From NCBI GenBank assembly GCA_028344675.1, contig JAOMBT010000005.1, positions 1 through 43,940 of the forward strand: DNA of 43,940 nt. Direction: 5' to 3'. The stretch is from Acidimicrobiaceae bacterium. Its GTDB lineage: Bacteria > Actinomycetota > Acidimicrobiia > Actinomarinales > Actinomarinaceae. Both the position numbers and the translations under genes were made by a program. Under the pieces are notes generated by a model. The model worked only from the letters and a program-made list of their open reading frames with translations, made no database searches and was not told where the DNA came from. Below, piece by piece: positions 14,820 to 21,665 of the stretch (positions are counted from its first letter, which is position 1; each line of letters begins with the position of its first letter).

Positions 14820-15071
14820 ATGGCTTCAGGTTCCATTGTAAAAAATGTTGTAGAATATATTGTTTCTCAGATTGTAGAAGATCCTAAGTCTGTAAAAGTA
14901 GATATTGCAGATTCTGATGATGAAAATGTATCAATTGAAGTTAGAACTTCCCCTGATGACATGGGTAGAGTCATTGGTAAGCGTGGAAGAGTAGCACGTG
15001 CGATTCGCACCGTAGCTCAAGCAGCTGCAGATGAAGAAGGACTGCAATCTAGCGTCGAATTTATTGACTAA
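14820..15071 (+). CDS. khpA: KH-domain RNA-binding protein KhpA (UPF0109)
   Basis: DMGRVIGKRGRVARAIRTV motif; canonical position after rpsP. Confidence 0.92.
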   Translation: MASGSIVKNVVEYIVSQIVEDPKSVKVDIADSDDENVSIEVRTSPDDMGRVIGKRGRVARAIRTVAQAAADEEGLQSSVEFID

Positions 15072-15546
15072 CAATAACCTTTTTTATGTTGGTAAATTAG
15101 GAAAACCCCATTCTCTTAAAGGATTCCAATATATAAATATTGATATATTTTTTAGAAATCATAATCTTGATGATATTGAATTAAAGGTTGGAAAAGATTA
15201 TCTAATTGTTGAAGATTTTAAGAATCATTTAAAAGATAGAAATTTAATAAAATTTACAAATTTTGACACTATAGAGTCTATACAAAATCTAAGAGATTCA
15301 GATGTATCTATTTCAAAAGATCTAGTTGATACATTTATTAATGAATTCAATCTTCCGTGGCCAGGTTTTTTTAAGGGATTGGAAATAACTAATGATGGAA
15401 TGGTTTTAAAGAGTGTCCAATATTTAAATAAGATGATTTTCTGCAATGTTGATGGAATAAAAGATTTTCTTGTTCCTTATAACGACAACTATTTTTACTA
15501 TAACAATGGAAATTTAGAACTGATCAACGATAGCTTAACTACATAA
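15064..15546 (+). CDS. rimM: 16S rRNA processing protein RimM, diverged
   Basis: VGKLGKPHSLKG N-terminal motif, KDRNLIKF, C-terminal LVPY, and synteny. Start re-called to the in-frame TTG at 15064 overlapping the khpA stop. Confidence 0.75.
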   Translation: MTNNNLFYVGKLGKPHSLKGFQYINIDIFFRNHNLDDIELKVGKDYLIVEDFKNHLKDRNLIKFTNFDTIESIQNLRDSDVSISKDLVDTFINEFNLPWPGFFKGLEITNDGMVLKSVQYLNKMIFCNVDGIKDFLVPYNDNYFYYNNGNLELINDSLTT

Positions 15547-16236
15547 CCATTCAAATATTAACTTACTATATTTGTCATCTACCATATTTTCAGGATGCCA
15601 TTGAATTCCAATTGCTTCCCACTGATTAGTTGTTTCAATACCTTCTATTACTCCATCTGATGATTTGGCAGTAATTTTTAGGTCTTTACCCAGTAAATCA
15701 ATTCCTTGATGATGAATAGAATTAACACTTATTGTTGTTTTTTGAAATAAAGAATATAACTTTGAATCATTATAAATTTCAATATCATGAATGTGTGACC
15801 TTGCATCTTCGAAAGGTTTATCATGCTTTATATCTGTAAATCCAGCATCATTTAAATCCTGATACAGTGTGCCTTTTTTGTATACATTTAATAATTGGTT
15901 TCCTCTGCAAATTGCTAAAGTTTTAATATTGTTTTTTTCAGCAGATTTAAGTAGGCCTAACTCAGTTAAATCTCGTTGATCAGAAATTCTTGTCGTTTTA
16001 TCATTTATATCTTGTCCGTATACATTAGGATTTATATCTCCACCACCAGATATAATTAGGCCATCAAATTTTGAAATATTAATATTATCTAAATCTTGTG
16101 GGCCAACAATTACAGCTGTGCTTCCGTATTTATTACACAGTTTTACAAAATCATTATTTATTACTACACAGGGAATATTTCCAGGAGCCATATCGACATT
16201 TTTAGTTCCTGTAGAAATTGCAATTAACTTATTCAT
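15535..16236 (-). CDS. Peptidase C26 / gamma-glutamyl-gamma-aminobutyrate hydrolase (PuuD-like) family
   Basis: DGLIISGGGDINP, AICRG (nucleophile Cys), VNSIHHQGI and IQWHPE (His-Glu) motifs. Confidence 0.88.
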   Translation of the reverse strand: MNKLIAISTGTKNVDMAPGNIPCVVINNDFVKLCNKYGSTAVIVGPQDLDNINISKFDGLIISGGGDINPNVYGQDINDKTTRISDQRDLTELGLLKSAEKNNIKTLAICRGNQLLNVYKKGTLYQDLNDAGFTDIKHDKPFEDARSHIHDIEIYNDSKLYSLFQKTTISVNSIHHQGIDLLGKDLKITAKSSDGVIEGIETTNQWEAIGIQWHPENMVDDKYSKLIFEWLCS

Positions 16237-16645
16237 AACTAAATATGCACTGAACCTCTACACAAACATTTAGAGGAAGACTCTTAACACCTACTGCTGA
16301 TCTTGTTGCCTTCTCACTAAAAAATTCAGCTAAAGTATCAGTAAATCCATTTAGCACCTTCGCATGATCTACAAAAGAATCATCAGCGTTAACAAATCCT
16401 ACAACATTTACTGGTTGAAGATTATTTATATCAGTATGTGACTTAAGTGTTGCAATAGTTAATTTAGCACATAAAGCAGATGCTGCATATGCATCTGTAA
16501 TAGAGATTTCACTTGGAACTTTTCCTATAAATTTTTGATTTCCAGTAATAGGTATATGTCCTGAAGTAAATATAAGATTCCCAACTCTTTTATATGTCAC
16601 ATAGTTGCCTATTGCTTGAGGAGCTGTTGGAAAGTCATTCTCCAT
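16229..16645 (-). CDS. Rid (RidA/YjgF/UK114) family protein
   Basis: GNYV, IFTSGHIP, TRSAVGVKSLPLNVCVEV motifs, including the conserved Arg. Confidence 0.88.
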   Translation of the reverse strand: MENDFPTAPQAIGNYVTYKRVGNLIFTSGHIPITGNQKFIGKVPSEISITDAYAASALCAKLTIATLKSHTDINNLQPVNVVGFVNADDSFVDHAKVLNGFTDTLAEFFSEKATRSAVGVKSLPLNVCVEVQCIFSYE

Positions 16646-17642
16646 TTTTAAGAAGTTCCTTGATTAGGTCAACTACTCTATTTGAGTATCCCCATTCATT
16701 GTCGTACCAACACACAACTTTTAAATGGTTATTTTCTAAAAGTTGAGTTGATGAAGCATCGTATATACTTGAATGTGGATTATTGAGTATGTCAGTTGAT
16801 ACAAGTGGAATATCTGAGTACTCCAAAATACCTTTTAGTTCATTTTCTGAAGCATTTCTGATAGCAGCATTAACTTCTTCAATGGTTACATCTTTCTCAA
16901 GCTCAACAACTAAATCAACAACACTACCGTTGGGTACAGGAACTCTCATAGCCATTCCATCAAGTTTTCCATTTAATTCAGGGAGAACCATGCCCACTGC
17001 CTTAGCTGCACCTGTTGACGTAGGAATAATATTTTGGGTAGCACTTCTACCTCTTCTAAAGTCACTGTGAGTTGTTTCGGCTAGTGCTTGATCATTAGTG
17101 TAAGCATGAATAGTAGTCATTAAACCTGATCTAATAACAAAATTATCATTAAGAACTTTAGCAATTGGTGCTAAACAATTTGTAGTACAGGAAGCATTGG
17201 ATACAATTTTATGATCACTATTTAAGTCATCATTGTTTACTCCAAGAACAATTGTTGCATCTATCTCATCTTTAGGTGGAACTGTAAGCAGGACCTTTTT
17301 AGCTCCAGCTTTGATATGCATATTTAATGATTCACTATCTCTAAATATCCCAGTAGATTCAATCACTACATCTACATTGTGTTCTTTCCACGGTAAATCT
17401 TTTGGATTTTTAATTGAGATTAGATCGATAGTTCTCTCATTAACTTTTAATTTATTACCGTCCAATGACACATCAGCATCCAAAACTCCCATGACGGAAT
17501 CATGTTTTAGTAAATAAGCTAAATTTTCATAGTTACCTAGGTCATTAATTGCTACAACATTTAACGGAGAATTACTTTCAATTATAATTCTCAATATTGA
17601 CCTACCGATTCTTCCGAATCCATTAATCGCTATATTTCCCAT
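16635..17642 (-). CDS. gap: Type I glyceraldehyde-3-phosphate dehydrogenase, catalytically intact
   Basis: INGFGRIGR, SNASCTTNCLAP, TTIHAYT, TSTGAA, AMRVP and WYDNEWGY motifs. Start re-called to ATG 17642 behind a GGAG SD. Confidence 0.97.
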   Translation of the reverse strand: MGNIAINGFGRIGRSILRIIIESNSPLNVVAINDLGNYENLAYLLKHDSVMGVLDADVSLDGNKLKVNERTIDLISIKNPKDLPWKEHNVDVVIESTGIFRDSESLNMHIKAGAKKVLLTVPPKDEIDATIVLGVNNDDLNSDHKIVSNASCTTNCLAPIAKVLNDNFVIRSGLMTTIHAYTNDQALAETTHSDFRRGRSATQNIIPTSTGAAKAVGMVLPELNGKLDGMAMRVPVPNGSVVDLVVELEKDVTIEEVNAAIRNASENELKGILEYSDIPLVSTDILNNPHSSIYDASSTQLLENNHLKVVCWYDNEWGYSNRVVDLIKELLKNGE

Positions 17643-17644
17643 AC

Positions 17645-18646
17645 TTACTCCAAATCCATTTTTTTTAGTGTATCTATAATGCGTGCTGCATATCCCCATC
17701 CGTTATCGAACCAAATAATTAATTTAATTTTTTTATTATTAATACCCATTGTTGCAATTCCATCTACTAGTCCGGAAAGGGTGCTTCTCACTACGTCAGA
17801 AGAGACTATAGGATCATACGTAATTCCTACAATATCCTTTAAAGAGTTTTTAGAAATATCTTCTATTAATTTATTTATTTCTTCTACTGAAGTTTCTTTA
17901 TTTAGATCAATAGTTAAATCAACAGTACTACCATCAGGAACCGGGACTGTCATTGAAGATGAAGCTACCTTATTTTTGAGTGATGGTAGCACTTCAACTA
18001 TAACATCAGATGATTTAGTAATACTTGGAATAATATTCTCACCGGCGGCTCTATTTAATCTCAATCCTTCTCCAGCAACATCCGCTAGTCTATTGGAGTT
18101 TGAATAGCCATGAACCGTCGTTATAAAAGCACGTTTAATCCCAACCTTTTCTTGTAAATTTTTTAAAAGTGGTGCAACTGCATTTGCCGTATTAGATCCT
18201 AATGAAAATGCATTCGCTGAAAAATCTACTTTATCATCATTAGCTCCAGGAATATAAATTTGAACATCACCAAAATTCATTGGTGTAGAGGCTATTAGGA
18301 CTTTTTTACAACCTTTTTTAATGTGTTCTTGAATCTCATCAAGAATTTGAGGCTTTCCAGTAGCAAGAATAACAACATCCGTGTTTGTAGATAACCAATC
18401 TGCATCTGCAGAGTCTTTCCAATTATTAAAAAGAATTTCCCTTCCATTAACAATTATTCCATTTTCTGATTCTTCAATGTCTGCATCTAGCTGCCCATAG
18501 ATAGAATCATATTTTAGTAAATAGATAAGATTTTTTTTATCTGCAGTGTCGGAGATTGAAATTATGTCTATATTATTATTTGTAAGTGATTGTCTAAATA
18601 AGTCTCTACCTATTCTTCCAAACCCAACGAGAGAAACTCTAGTCAT
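17645..18646 (-). CDS. GAPDH-like paralogue lacking the catalytic Cys (probable pseudoenzyme)
   Basis: Full-length GAPDH fold (VGFGRIGR, KYDSIYG, TTVHGY, VPVPDGSTVDL, WFDNGWGY), but the active site reads GSNTANAVAP. SD-like AAGGGA. Confidence 0.85.
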   Translation of the reverse strand: MTRVSLVGFGRIGRDLFRQSLTNNNIDIISISDTADKKNLIYLLKYDSIYGQLDADIEESENGIIVNGREILFNNWKDSADADWLSTNTDVVILATGKPQILDEIQEHIKKGCKKVLIASTPMNFGDVQIYIPGANDDKVDFSANAFSLGSNTANAVAPLLKNLQEKVGIKRAFITTVHGYSNSNRLADVAGEGLRLNRAAGENIIPSITKSSDVIVEVLPSLKNKVASSSMTVPVPDGSTVDLTIDLNKETSVEEINKLIEDISKNSLKDIVGITYDPIVSSDVVRSTLSGLVDGIATMGINNKKIKLIIWFDNGWGYAARIIDTLKKMDLE

Positions 18647-18714
18647 TCTATTCCCTTACTATTATTTTATAACTTCTTGTTACAATCAAGTAATATAGTC
18701 TAAAAAAGAAGATT

Positions 18715-19824
18715 ATGATAAACATAACCAAAAATATCAATGATTTAATATTTGGTGATATTCCAACTGCTGAACTACTTGAAGAAGCATATCTAAAAAA
18801 AATAGAATATTTTGGAAATTTAATAACATACAGTCCTAAAGTCTTTATTCCTTTAACAACAATGTGCAGAGATAAATGTGCTTACTGTACATTTGTTAAG
18901 TCTCCTAAAGAAGGTGGACAGTACTTGTCAATAGAAGATGTTTTAAGTATTGCTGAAGCTGGAGATGCCAACGGTTGCTATGAGGCTCTTTTTACATTAG
19001 GTGATAAACCCGAAATTAAATGGAATGCGGCTAAAGATGAATTAAATAAATTTGGATTTAATTCTACTCATCAGTATTTAATTCACTGCATGAAAGAAGT
19101 TAATGAGAGTATGACAATATTTCCCCATGCAAATCCAGGATTGATGTCGAAGGATGAAATAAATGATTTAAAAATACATTCTCCTTCTGGAGGCATAATG
19201 ATTGAAAGTTTCTCAAAAGATATTTACTCAAAGGGAAAACCACACTATAAAACAACAACTAAATTCGTAGATTTAAGATTGGAAACATTAAATAATGCCC
19301 TTGAAATTAAATATCCTATGACAACAGGCTTGCTACTGGGACTTACAGAGACAAAAGAGGAATTAATAAATGATATTGAACAAATGGTAAATGTATCAAA
19401 AAATAATTCATCAATACAGGAAATTATTTTGCAGAACTTTAGAGCAAAAGTTAATACATTAATGAGGAATAATGCCGAAATAACAAATGATTTGTTTTTA
19501 AGAATTATTGCAACAATTAGAATTTTTGTTCCTGGTCATATTTCTGTTCAAGTTCCACCAAATCTATCACCCGATATTAATTTATTCTTAAAAAGCGGTA
19601 TTAATGATTTAGGTGGTATTTCACCACTAACCATTGATTGGGTTAACCCCGATCATTTATGGCCTAATTTAGAAAAATTGAGTATTGAAGTTTTAAAATC
19701 TAATCAAGTCTTAAAAAAAAGACTTCCTATTTATCCAAGATTTATACAAAAAGAATGGTTAAATGAAATAATGTTTGAAAAAATTAATAATATTATTGAT
19801 ACTAATGGATATCCAGAGGAATAA
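18715..19824 (+). CDS. cofG: FO synthase subunit CofG (radical SAM; F420 biosynthesis)
   Basis: TYSPKVFIPLT, CRDKCAYC (CxxxCxxC), EALFTLGDKPE, PHANPG, QEIILQNF and GINDLGGISPLTIDWVNP motifs. Confidence 0.92.
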   Translation: MINITKNINDLIFGDIPTAELLEEAYLKKIEYFGNLITYSPKVFIPLTTMCRDKCAYCTFVKSPKEGGQYLSIEDVLSIAEAGDANGCYEALFTLGDKPEIKWNAAKDELNKFGFNSTHQYLIHCMKEVNESMTIFPHANPGLMSKDEINDLKIHSPSGGIMIESFSKDIYSKGKPHYKTTTKFVDLRLETLNNALEIKYPMTTGLLLGLTETKEELINDIEQMVNVSKNNSSIQEIILQNFRAKVNTLMRNNAEITNDLFLRIIATIRIFVPGHISVQVPPNLSPDINLFLKSGINDLGGISPLTIDWVNPDHLWPNLEKLSIEVLKSNQVLKKRLPIYPRFIQKEWLNEIMFEKINNIIDTNGYPEE

Positions 19825-19826
19825 TT

Positions 19827-21665
19827 ATGAGTAAAAATATATCCTTCTTGAGAATACGACCTTGTGATAATGACAATGAAATATATTTAAACTCTAGAAA
19901 AAATGAAGGAACATCTTCATTTTTTATCAAAGAAGACACGAATGTCGATTTAGAGTCAGTTCATAGTAAAGAGTTTCAAACTATATCTAAAAACCCAAAT
20001 ATTGATAGTGATATGTGGATTGTAAATGATGAAAACTGGATTACCTTTAAAAAATATGAGAGTAAAAGGCTTATATATAAATATTCTGGAAATCGTGAAA
20101 TTGCAATTGAGATCATAGATAGATTAACACCTGGTATTGTCTTAATAAAAAATGTAAGTGATATAAAATTTTTAAAATCAATAAAAACTAAAAATACATT
20201 TTTTATCAGTTCTTATGCAAATTCAATAGAGGAGGCTTTGCGATTATCCAATGAGCAAATTGATGATCTTCTCTTACGGGATTGGAGTTCTGATCAGATA
20301 TTAGATCTTCAAAACCACCAGGACTTTAACTACTTTGAAAGAACTGTATTATCACCACTTTTTTCAATTGATGAAGCTAGAAAATTATTCGATTCAAAAA
20401 GGTACTTTCGATACCTTAAGACAAAAGATGTTAGAGGCTACAGGAGACTAAAAACTAAATGGTCACCTGGTAGTGGACTCCCTTTGCATAAGTTAGAAAA
20501 ATTTCAACATAATAAAATTAGTAATTTTTATGATGAAGAATTTGATGAGATAATACAAAAAATTAATAACTCAGAAACAATCAATGATGAAGATTTATTT
20601 AAGCTATTTCATACATCCGGAACAAAAATTAATGAATTAGCAGAAGTAGCTAATAAATTAAATCTTGAAAAAAATGGTAACAAAGTTAGCTTTGTTCAGA
20701 ACAGAAATATTAATTATACAAATCAGTGTTACTACAAATGCGGATTTTGTGGGTTCTCAAAGGGACCTAATAGTTTAAATTTGAAGGAGAAGCCTTATTC
20801 TATAGATATTCCTGAGATTGTAGACAGGTCTGTAGAAGCATATGAAATGGGTGCTAGTGAAGTATGTTTACAAGGAGGTATTCATCCCGAATATACTGGG
20901 GAATTTTATATGTCCATGGTTAGAGAAATTAAAACTGTAGTACCAAATTTACATATACACGGATTTACACCTTTAGAAATATGGCAAGGTGCTGAAACCA
21001 TAAACACTCCTGTCGAAGAATATTTAAGAATGCTAAAAGATGCTGGATTAAACACTCTTCCTGGCACTGCAGCTGAGATACTGGACGACAGAGTTAGAGA
21101 ATATTTGTGTCCAGATAAAATAACATCCTCGCAATGGGCCTACGTTATGGAAGTAGCTCACTCCCTAGGTATAAAATCTACTGCAACAATTATGTTTGGC
21201 CATATAGATGATATAAGGTCATGGGTTAATCATTTTAGATTAATAAGAGACATTCAAGATACCACAGGGGGGTTTACTGAAGTTGTCCCGTTACCTTTTG
21301 TGCACATGGGTTCTCCAATATATTTACGAGGAAAGAGTATGCCTGGACCCACTTGGGATGAAGTAGTACTTATCCATGCACTTGCAAGAATTTATTTTTT
21401 TAACAGCATAGACAATATTCAAGCAAGTTGGGTTAAGTTAGGACACGACGGTGCTGGAAAACTTCTGCATGCAGGAGTTAATGATTTAGGTGGAACATTA
21501 ATTAATGAAAATATAAGTCGTGCTTCTGGTGCTGATCACGGCCAAGAAACTACACAAAAACAATTTATAGAGATCATTACTAATGAAAAGAAAACACCTA
21601 TGTTGAGAAACACTCTTTATACAGAATTTAAGAAAATGGAAATAGCCCATATCAACAATGAATAA
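19827..21665 (+). CDS. cofH: FO synthase subunit CofH with a ~230-aa N-terminal extension
   Basis: NRNINYTN, CYYKCGFC (CxxxCxxC), EVCLQGGIHP, PGTAAEILDD, TIMFGH, QASWVKLG and NDLGGTLINENISRASGA motifs. Confidence 0.9.
   Translation: MSKNISFLRIRPCDNDNEIYLNSRKNEGTSSFFIKEDTNVDLESVHSKEFQTISKNPNIDSDMWIVNDENWITFKKYESKRLIYKYSGNREIAIEIIDRLTPGIVLIKNVSDIKFLKSIKTKNTFFISSYANSIEEALRLSNEQIDDLLLRDWSSDQILDLQNHQDFNYFERTVLSPLFSIDEARKLFDSKRYFRYLKTKDVRGYRRLKTKWSPGSGLPLHKLEKFQHNKISNFYDEEFDEIIQKINNSETINDEDLFKLFHTSGTKINELAEVANKLNLEKNGNKVSFVQNRNINYTNQCYYKCGFCGFSKGPNSLNLKEKPYSIDIPEIVDRSVEAYEMGASEVCLQGGIHPEYTGEFYMSMVREIKTVVPNLHIHGFTPLEIWQGAETINTPVEEYLRMLKDAGLNTLPGTAAEILDDRVREYLCPDKITSSQWAYVMEVAHSLGIKSTATIMFGHIDDIRSWVNHFRLIRDIQDTTGGFTEVVPLPFVHMGSPIYLRGKSMPGPTWDEVVLIHALARIYFFNSIDNIQASWVKLGHDGAGKLLHAGVNDLGGTLINENISRASGADHGQETTQKQFIEIITNEKKTPMLRNTLYTEFKKMEIAHINNE

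Follow-up and report, generated by a model that had tools for sequence, protein, structure and literature searches.

Glyceraldehyde-3-phosphate dehydrogenase (GAPDH) ranks among the enzymes studied most, and teaching presents it as a homotetramer whose catalytic subunits are identical. Its relative Epd is enzymatically active, with Cys149 and the phosphate site both retained. The wider GAPDH-like fold also includes enzymes that function without the cysteine. The chloroplast subunit GapB has full catalytic capacity, and its regulatory role depends on a CP12-like extension at the C-terminus. The chloroplast A2B2 enzyme is, to our knowledge, the only well-known heteromeric GAPDH, and combines two paralogous subunits per tetramer, GapA and GapB, one of them specialised for regulation (PDB 2pkq, 7q53). 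Dead paralogues working beside a live enzyme are described for other families, namely the trypanosomatid "prozymes" that activate AdoMetDC and deoxyhypusine synthase (PMC6221367, PMC3663545). No description of a natural GAPDH partner devoid of the catalytic cysteine was found in the searchable literature, including a review of the GAPDH-like superfamily.

The window considered here, a stretch of 43,940 nt from an Acidimicrobiaceae bacterium (contig JAOMBT010000005.1), carries such a candidate partner on its minus strand. The upstream gene, hereafter gapX (17645..18646, 333 aa, stop included), encodes a GAPDH-fold paralogue lacking the catalytic Cys, and is followed by gap (16635..17642, 335 aa), a canonical type I GAPDH whose length is counted from an internal ATG (a longer ORF from 17699 overlaps gapX and is not needed). 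A preliminary description of this DNA had reported two GAPDH-fold ORFs 2 nt apart, the downstream one canonical, and both ORFs and their junction are as it described them. The coupling junction (17640..17652, minus strand) reads GGAG-TAA-GT-ATG, i.e., the Shine-Dalgarno (SD) motif GGAG of gap (17648-17651) lies inside the last gapX codons, followed by the gapX TAA (17645-17647), a 2-nt spacer and the gap ATG (17640-17642). The SD that the same description attributed to gapX is also present, as an AAGGGA on the minus strand (18652..18657), 5 nt upstream of the ATG.

Two further minus-strand genes complete the operon: a RidA/YjgF-like gene (16229..16645), with an 11-nt overlap between its start and the stop of gap, and a last gene encoding a Peptidase C26 / class-I glutamine amidotransferase (15535..16236), which overlaps the RidA-like gene by 8 nt. 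The gap, RidA-like and C26 genes keep the same order in loci L120 and L121, and the RidA and C26 genes lie beside the pair only in close relatives of the window, the RidA-like gene not being found next to it in 13 inspected loci from other lineages. On the other side, a 68-nt spacer (18647..18714) separating gapX from the divergent cofG is probably a promoter region; promoter-like hexamers lie in it, but a promoter and terminator scan yielded no more sites than shuffled sequence does. The genome of the window (71% complete) contains no GAPDH homologues besides gapX and gap, and gap is the only catalytic GAPDH found in it.

How far has gapX departed from a type I GAPDH (GapA; EC 1.2.1.12; Geobacillus stearothermophilus, 1GD1)? 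Both genes of the pair show Pfam Gp_dh_N and Gp_dh_C domains (E-values for gapX of 1.8e-24 and 4.6e-41, respectively), and gapX has the same two-domain fold and length as the Geobacillus enzyme, with 38% identity. It is 37% identical to its neighbour Gap, with which it is collinear to the same end point, without any added domain or extension. Gap passes the TIGR01534 cut-off (367.2 bits) at 445 bits, and its catalytic motifs SCTTNC, HAYTNDQ, TSTGAA and MRVPV are all intact, whereas gapX fails at 270.5 bits and stays below the cut-off of every GAPDH or Epd NCBIfam model. All the gapX motifs quoted in the preliminary description (GFGRIGR, ISDT, SNTANA, TTVHGY, SNSN, SITKSS, MTVPVPDGS and WFDNGWGY) are present. 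Relative to type I GAPDH, Cys149 is replaced by Asn (Asn152, codon AAT, 18191..18193, minus strand, as for all codons given here), Arg231, which holds the substrate phosphate, by Thr (Thr233, 17948..17950), Arg195 by Leu, Asp181 by Ser, Gly209 by Lys, Ala210 by Ser, Thr179 by Ser and Glu314 by Gly (Gly316, 17699..17701). Cys149 and Glu314 are each found in 78/78 Gaps compared, and the Asn codon differs at two bases from a Cys codon, so that it is not explained by a single miscall.

The earlier claim that all catalytic groups are lost is only partly right: Cys149, Arg231, Arg195 and others are gone, but the catalytic-base position His176 (His179, 18110..18112), Ser148, Thr150, Thr208 and two invariant arginines of the S-loop are kept. 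This loop (residues 182-203, 18038..18103, minus strand) contains RLADV and these two arginines, and bears Leu197 at the position of the middle Arg195. Since the thiol nucleophile, the phosphate-holding arginines and the phosphate loop are missing, gapX is unable to form a thioester or to bind glyceraldehyde 3-phosphate and phosphate in the GAPDH manner. It is in contrast predicted to still bind NAD(H), because the GxGxxG motif, Asp32, Thr96, Asn313 and Tyr317 are all present by sequence and invariant in Acidimicrobiia. Epd/GapB of gamma-proteobacteria (TIGR01532, NF010058) resembles gapX as a GAPDH paralogue of altered function in the same superfamily, but gapX lacks Cys149 and the phosphate site, and scores 196.9 against 530.55 bits with TIGR01532, and 208 against 539 with NF010058.

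The AF2 monomer model of gapX is confident (pLDDT 87.7) except in the S-loop (pLDDT below 50), and superimposes on solved GAPDHs with TM-scores of 0.91-0.93 (0.92 to 1gd1). Sequence and fold searches of the PDB with gapX retrieved only canonical GAPDHs and engineered C149 mutants, with C149S and C149A variants among the best sequence matches, and no natural Cys-less homologue among solved structures. The S-loop forms the R interface, and interface ranges were taken from PMC5119734. In gapX it is the best-conserved segment, with an entropy of 1.09 bits, compared with 1.27 for the Q interface and 1.89 for the rest of the protein, while the catalytic and anion columns reach 1.58 bits in gapX versus 0.00 in partner Gaps. 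Mutation of certain residues breaks up the tetramer of B. stearothermophilus (PMC8910861). Of these, Trp84 and Asp282 never vary in gapX, and at Tyr46 and Ser48 it shows conservative retention; Asp47, Asp186 and the two S-loop arginines are invariant as well. As the S-loop and Q-interface segments are the best conserved and most of these residues do not vary, gapX probably still oligomerises.

The gene is not in decay. Purifying selection on gapX is as strong as on gap, with dN/dS of 0.05-0.10 and 0.03-0.09, respectively, the two genes further downstream having values of 0.11-0.14. Across 120 homologues (66-100% identity), the altered motifs show no variation. The gapX frame is intact in 84/85 genomes, the single frameshift falling at a poly-A run between halves that are 72-81% identical to the window protein. 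Neither a dN/dS near 1 nor, apart from that single case, frameshifts in relatives, which the preliminary description had named as arguments against a selected pseudoenzyme, are thus observed, and its view that fold, NAD site and operon position were retained under selection is borne out by these data, by the TM-scores and by the strict linkage to gap described below. In the genus, whose genomes are of about 1 Mb, a gapX match was recovered in 22/24 and 35/37 sampled genomes. Neither gene was matched in three genomes (G004, G020, G134), gapX is truncated at a contig end in G112, and in G142 gapX is present and gap is cut at a contig end; the pair occurs in essentially every genome of the genus.

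The preliminary description had also proposed that Cys-less homologues be sought and their adjacency to an intact gap examined, and a canonical gap does lie directly downstream in several phyla. In all 32 pairs that could be fully read, gapX precedes gap on the same strand, with a spacing that ranges from a 4-nt overlap to an 85-nt spacer and is within 3 nt in 31 of them; in relatives, the two genes abut or overlap by 1 or 4 nt. In a class-wide sample, a partner gap was among the matches listed for at least 59 of 85 gapX matches, the other 26 having theirs mostly outside the matches listed or lying at contig ends; three of these were checked (G142, G302 and G185), and each has gap directly downstream. 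The same holds for 6/6 of the most divergent gapX representatives, and no gapX away from a gap was encountered among the loci inspected. A genome scan based on a narrower alignment, dominated by canonical gap through the GFGRIGRN pattern, gave intact pairs in 12/80 loci. The pair is found in Actinomycetota, Thermodesulfobacteriota, Bdellovibrionota, Acidobacteriota and Ca. Eisenbacteria, with gapX conserved down to 31-43% identity across phyla.

In a tree including canonical Gaps, gapX is monophyletic (32 rows, SH-aLRT 99) with the window protein inside the clade, and a tree of representatives at 50% identity recovers a gapX clade of 17 members, 16 of them without Cys (support 98). gapX is one old clade, located directly upstream of a canonical gap in every inspected member and spanning at least five phyla. 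All partner Gaps fall outside a clade of 53 solo Gaps, with a topology that repeats the gapX tree, and a tree constrained to unite the partner and solo Gaps of Acidobacteriota is rejected (AU p = 0.0002, delta lnL 167). By these trees, partner Gaps make up a lineage of their own, which has been inherited together with gapX and is distinct from the solo Gaps of the same phyla. Several residues set partner Gaps apart from solo ones, among them Tyr at alignment position 43 and Ala at 188; they are backed by only 2-3 independent contrasts and may be simply inherited. Partner-type Gaps without gapX occur in two lineages, with no gapX remnant, so the partnership is not obligatory everywhere. What is new here is that the pair is an old unit of several phyla, and that the downstream Gap is itself a special lineage.

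Of the three roles initially offered for gapX (non-catalytic subunit of an A2B2-like tetramer, NAD(H) sensor, or moonlighting RNA-binding protein), the evidence favours that of a non-catalytic, presumably NAD(H)-binding subunit in a tetramer of mixed composition; no result points to RNA binding. We consider it somewhat probable that gapX acts in this way in a heteromeric GAPDH, a reading supported indirectly by interface conservation, gene coupling and co-inheritance. In the mechanism proposed, gapX and Gap would be made from one translationally coupled message and would assemble into a GAPDH-type tetramer containing both proteins, such as two subunits of each. The S-loop of gapX would then reach across the R axis to complete the adjacent catalytic subunit's cofactor site, and gapX would tune the activity or cooperativity of Gap.

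Such an arrangement would differ from the chloroplast A2B2 enzyme in several respects, as gapX appears catalytically dead, has no extension and is a proposed heteromer subunit, and as the GapA and GapB genes do not form a coupled pair. With the trypanosomatid prozymes it would have in common a dead paralogue under selection next to an active enzyme and, as the proposed mode, a heteromer whose dead subunit tunes or activates the live one; these prozymes nevertheless belong to other enzyme families, in eukaryotic hosts and from genes that are not operon-coupled, and for gapX both complex and activation are proposals. More tentatively, and with a good deal less confidence, one may imagine that in Acidimicrobiia resembling Ca. 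Actinomarina, and in members of at least four further phyla, the GAPDH of glycolysis and gluconeogenesis is a two-gene heteromer and not the textbook homotetramer. Half of its sites would be taken by an old, dead, NAD(H)-binding paralogue, which through the S-loop and cooperative interfaces would determine how active the live subunits are or how they respond to redox state, the partner Gap having co-evolved with it, as a bacterial "prozyme" of a core glycolytic enzyme.

If a dedicated dead paralogue is kept by selection and tied this closely to gap in several phyla, a central step of metabolism would gain a further subunit, or else a regulator; among the carriers is a very abundant marine actinobacterium whose genome measures about 1 Mb. 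The paralogue would also provide a clean bacterial case of pseudoenzyme evolution by tandem duplication, and the pair offers a handle on GAPDH cooperativity and half-of-sites behaviour.

Does gapX necessarily act together with Gap? It could instead form a homo-oligomer apart from it, binding NAD(H) and serving, for instance, to sense or buffer redox state or as a moonlighting binder, and be paired with gap for co-production only. A homotetramer of gapX would be just as compatible with the conserved interfaces, no charge-complementary positions turned up when gapX and partner Gap were screened for them, and partner-type Gaps do exist alone. Among 16 non-redundant Acidimicrobiia gapX, moreover, Asn occupies position 149 in 16/16, and the S-N-T-x-N-A block on the nicotinamide side, Asn180, Asn313, Tyr317 and other NAD-site residues are equally invariant, the constancy of the block hinting at a specific ligand role beyond scaffolding. 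We nevertheless regard a separate homo-oligomer as unlikely: genes that are only co-regulated seldom stay strictly adjacent, in fixed order and with stop overlapping start, in phylum after phylum, the partner Gap forms its own lineage inherited along with gapX, gapX was always next to gap in the loci inspected, and a protein of 333 aa collinear with Gap has no added domain through which to pass a signal.

Less likely still, gapX might be an active enzyme with a new, Cys-independent chemistry, for instance an NAD-dependent oxidoreductase acting, with His176 as base, on some non-phosphorylated compound related to the reaction of Gap. His176 is indeed found in 29/35 gapX, pocket residues are frozen within genus and class, and some members, such as those of Desulfobacterales, keep Cys149 and His176 while having lost Arg231. 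Across the clade, however, the pocket is variable: position 149 (2.38 bits) is occupied by N, S, P, C, V, A, G or I, entropies of 2.6-2.9 bits are seen at positions 181, 195 and 209, position 231 is Asn in 23/35, Thr in 5/35 and Arg in 0/35, and His176 itself is replaced by Lys, Arg or Ser in 6/35 (Lys in 4). No new conserved pocket residue emerged across the gapX clade, whose only clade-wide signature, Gly in place of Glu314 (30/35, within W[FY]DNGWGY), removes a side chain. Beyond the pair itself, no conserved neighbours were seen in the inspected loci, and no metabolic gene other than gap is consistently linked to gapX.

Finally, a decaying duplicate or an assembly or annotation artefact, which the missing cysteine, the frameshift in one genus genome and a split partner gap on one metagenome contig might evoke, is already refuted by the selection and conservation data, namely the low dN/dS, the intact frames with a lone poly-A frameshift, the conservation across phyla, the retention in a genome of about 1 Mb and an Asn codon two changes from Cys.

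gapX-type genes are currently annotated just as "glyceraldehyde-3-phosphate dehydrogenase", like their neighbours, and metabolic reconstructions therefore count two GAPDHs where only one is able to be catalytic. Rosetta-stone fusions were also considered and rejected: the long multi-GAPDH proteins among the representatives searched are canonical multi-copy models (SCTTN and Arg231 kept, WYDNE) containing no gapX-type unit, and long open frames in high-GC relatives correspond to different reading frames, as read from their coordinates. In one Desulfobacterales locus, and in that one only, the pair is followed by pgk.

Two collinear GAPDH-fold genes lie on the minus strand of the window, gapX (17645-18646, 333 aa) upstream and the canonical gap (16635-17642, 335 aa) downstream; their products share 37% identity, and Pfam places two GAPDH domains in each. 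The junction reads GGAG-TAA-GT-ATG, so that the Shine-Dalgarno sequence of gap falls within the final gapX codons and stop and start are separated by 2 bases. Against the curated type I GAPDH model (cut-off 367 bits), Gap scores 445 bits and gapX 270.5 bits; gapX also stays under the cut-offs of all other GAPDH and Epd models. No NCBIfam model exists for gapX, and no description of it was found in the searchable literature or the PDB. The 0.71-Mb, 71% complete genome contains these two GAPDH homologues only, the window has a G+C content of about 31%, and genomes of genus relatives measure about 1 Mb. Tara Oceans and other marine metagenomes supplied the contigs nearest to the window, and the gapX relatives that carry names are Acidimicrobiia; taken together, these features suggest a Ca. 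Actinomarina-like marine actinobacterium.

Homologues of gapX were searched among 1.8 billion representatives and placed in a tree, where a supported clade of 17 representatives includes the window protein, 16 of them without Cys149 (B. stearothermophilus numbering throughout). In a 120-row maximum-likelihood tree, 32 gapX from Acidimicrobiia, Desulfobacterales, a Bdellovibrionales MAG, Acidobacteriota, Ca. Eisenbacteria and an unclassified MAG form a single clade (99 SH-aLRT). The gene is present in 85 of 298 genomes of the class, in six families only, and the sole carriers in an even sample of the phylum (401 genomes) are the 6 from Acidimicrobiia. The adjacency that the preliminary description proposed to test is borne out in all 32 fully read pairs, with a canonical gap directly downstream on the same strand; the two genes overlap by 4 or 1 nt, abut, or are 2-3 nt apart, except at one locus (L086), where 85 nt separate them. 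In the class sample, at least 59 of the 85 gapX have a downstream partner among the matches listed; the partners of the other 26 are mostly not among the matches listed, or the genes are at contig ends, and three of these (G142, G302, G185) each have gap directly downstream. A gap start also follows gapX in each of the six most divergent representatives looked up. Beyond the pair itself, no conserved neighbours were found around it.

The Gaps encoded beside gapX (partner Gaps) all fall outside the clade of 53 Gaps without gapX (solo Gaps) in the 120-row tree, and their branching order mirrors that of gapX; in Acidobacteriota and Acidimicrobiia, partner Gaps branch apart from the solo Gaps found in their own taxa. 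Forcing the partner and solo Gaps of Acidobacteriota together, a group chosen after seeing the tree, is rejected (AU p = 0.0002, delta lnL 167). This mirrored topology and separate partner lineage show that gapX and gap have been passed on, by descent or by transfer, as a single unit. The association can nevertheless be dissolved, since two lineages have a partner-type Gap without gapX or any upstream remnant (L149 and L151 in genus g74, L150 in family f23). Partner Gaps are marked by Tyr at alignment position 43 (32/32 versus 6/56 solo) and Ala at 188 (32/32 versus 2/56), with only 2-3 independent contrasts behind such markers, and further by Met at 51 and Thr-Val at 120-121. Of these markers, three map to segments of the Q or R interface, and gapX itself also has Tyr 43 and Ala 188. 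Both gapX-less lineages have His at position 43, as in ordinary solo Gaps.

Every gapX motif quoted in the preliminary description is present in the window. Cys149 is replaced by Asn (AAT, 18191-18193, minus strand, a codon two changes away from Cys), Cys153 by Ala, Asp181 by Ser, Arg195 by Leu, Gly209 by Lys, Arg231 by Thr and Glu314 by Gly, but His176, Ser148, Thr150 and Thr208 are kept, together with the Rossmann motif, Asp32, Asn313 and Tyr317, so that the earlier claim of a loss of all catalytic groups was slightly overstated. With these replacements, gapX is incapable of GAPDH chemistry. It belongs to the same superfamily as type I GAPDH and Epd, but fails the defining tests of both, by model score and active-site residues. 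Four Acidimicrobiia gapX (L015, L017, L020, L021) have also exchanged the catalytic base His176 for Lys (TTVKAMSNSG/TVVKAMSNAG), with the other family features and the coupled gap retained. Some members from Desulfobacterales and relatives (L022 5737-6756; L026 5986-7008; P0127, L140 2501-3538) have Cys149 and His176 (SCTAHC/SCTAHA) but not Arg231, Gly209 or Glu314, so that loss of the phosphate sites probably preceded that of the cysteine, which would have disappeared several times over.

What remains conserved in gapX was compared across 35 gapX, 22 partner Gaps and 56 solo Gaps. With interface ranges as published for the GBS GAPDH structure (PMC5119734), entropy in gapX is lowest in the S-loop, at 1.09 bits, followed by the Q-interface segments at 1.27 bits; the remaining positions have 1.89 bits. 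In B. stearothermophilus GAPDH, the tetramer falls apart into dimers when Trp84, Asp282, Tyr283, Tyr46, Ser48 or Arg52 is mutated (PMC8910861). Of these residues, gapX keeps Trp84 and Asp282 without exception and has Tyr46 and Ser48 or conservative replacements of them; at Tyr283 it shares Val or Ile with partner Gaps, and Arg52 is retained in 22 of 35 sequences, with Gln in the window. Asp186 and two outer S-loop arginines occur in 35/35, and Asp47 in 34/35. The AlphaFold monomer (pLDDT 87.7, pTM 0.88) is a confident model outside the S-loop, whose pLDDT is below 50, and superposes on GAPDH structures with TM 0.91-0.93. As far as sequence can tell, gapX retains the parts for NAD(H) binding and for placement in a GAPDH-type tetramer.

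We infer from the retained interfaces and the coupling that gapX may bind Gap, and we lean towards a non-catalytic subunit of a mixed GAPDH tetramer as the most economical reading. Produced in step with its co-inherited catalytic Gap, gapX would contribute its S-loop to the lining of the adjacent live subunit's cofactor site and might modulate the cooperativity of the mixed tetramer; the P interface is given as the transmitter of NAD cooperativity by Roitel et al. 2003, as cited in PMC5119734. Chloroplast GapA/GapB have no more in common with such a system than the concept of a mixed tetramer, and trypanosomatid prozymes no more than that of a dead activating paralogue. Against it count the loss of gapX in two lineages, the few contrasts behind the marker residues, and the fact that no charge-complementary positions were found between gapX and its partner. 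Alternatively, the retained NAD(H)-binding parts may belong to a separate gapX homo-oligomer, which is possible if rather unlikely.

A new, cysteine-independent enzyme seems more doubtful still, as the pocket varies across the clade: entropy over the eleven catalytic and anion-site columns is 1.58 bits in gapX and 0.00 bits in partner Gaps, eight residues (N, S, P, C, V, A, G, I) occur at position 149, and no clade-wide new pocket residue was found, Glu314 to Gly being the sole clade-wide signature. The sequences give no indication of a new chemistry common to the clade. In favour of an enzyme are the Cys-retaining Desulfobacterales members and a pocket frozen within Acidimicrobiia, where S-N-T-x-N-A, Asn180, Asn313 and Tyr317 on the nicotinamide side, Asp32 and Thr96 are invariant in 16/16 non-redundant gapX and the phosphate-site positions vary. 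Asn149 and its block (window 18191-18193; L015-L017, L020, L021, L066, L083, L115-L117) persist despite about 40% overall identity, with S, P, C, V, A, G or I at position 149 outside Acidimicrobiia; it is not obvious that a subunit with a purely structural role would require them.

That gapX is a decaying copy is refuted by the selection data, with Nei-Gojobori dN/dS of 0.05-0.10 in unsaturated comparisons (gap, 0.03-0.09; two genes downstream of gap, 0.11-0.14), and not near 1, the value named in the preliminary description as one that would refute its proposed pseudoenzyme. The altered motifs (SNTANA, TVHGYSNSN, RLNRAA, ITKSS, MTVP[VI]PDGS) are essentially invariant among 120 homologues of 66-100% identity, 5 of which have SNTAIA for SNTANA. 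The pair occurs in 22 of 24 genus genomes in one sample and 35 of 37 in another; gapX is truncated by a contig end in G112, gap is cut by one in G142, which has gapX, and both genes are absent from G004, G020 and G134. In one gapX of the same genus (L118 in G043, about 2745-2747), a poly-A run between IDIKK and ETS holds the only frameshift, and each half matches the window protein at 72-81% identity; a homopolymer sequencing error is the probable cause, though a very recent inactivation could also account for it. On a metagenome contig (L139 3511-4517), the partner gap following gapX P0149 is called as pieces of 243 and 104 aa, implying a frameshift in the catalytic partner.

After gap, a RidA/YjgF-like gene and a peptidase C26/class-I amidotransferase gene follow on the minus strand (15535-16645), the former overlapping the gap stop by 11 nt and the latter the RidA-like gene by 8 nt; this four-gene operon was seen only in close relatives of the window (metagenome contigs L120, L121), and the usual gap-pgk-tpiA order is missing at the window locus. 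Divergent from gapX are cofG and cofH (18715-21665, plus strand), radical-SAM genes of F420 (FO) synthesis, the CofH-like ORF having 612 aa and a long N-terminal extension. A RimM-like ORF (15031-15546, plus strand) overlaps the end of the convergent C26 gene by 12 nt (15535-15546) and, as listed, shares 41 nt with the KH-domain gene before it (14820-15071); the true rimM start is probably further downstream.
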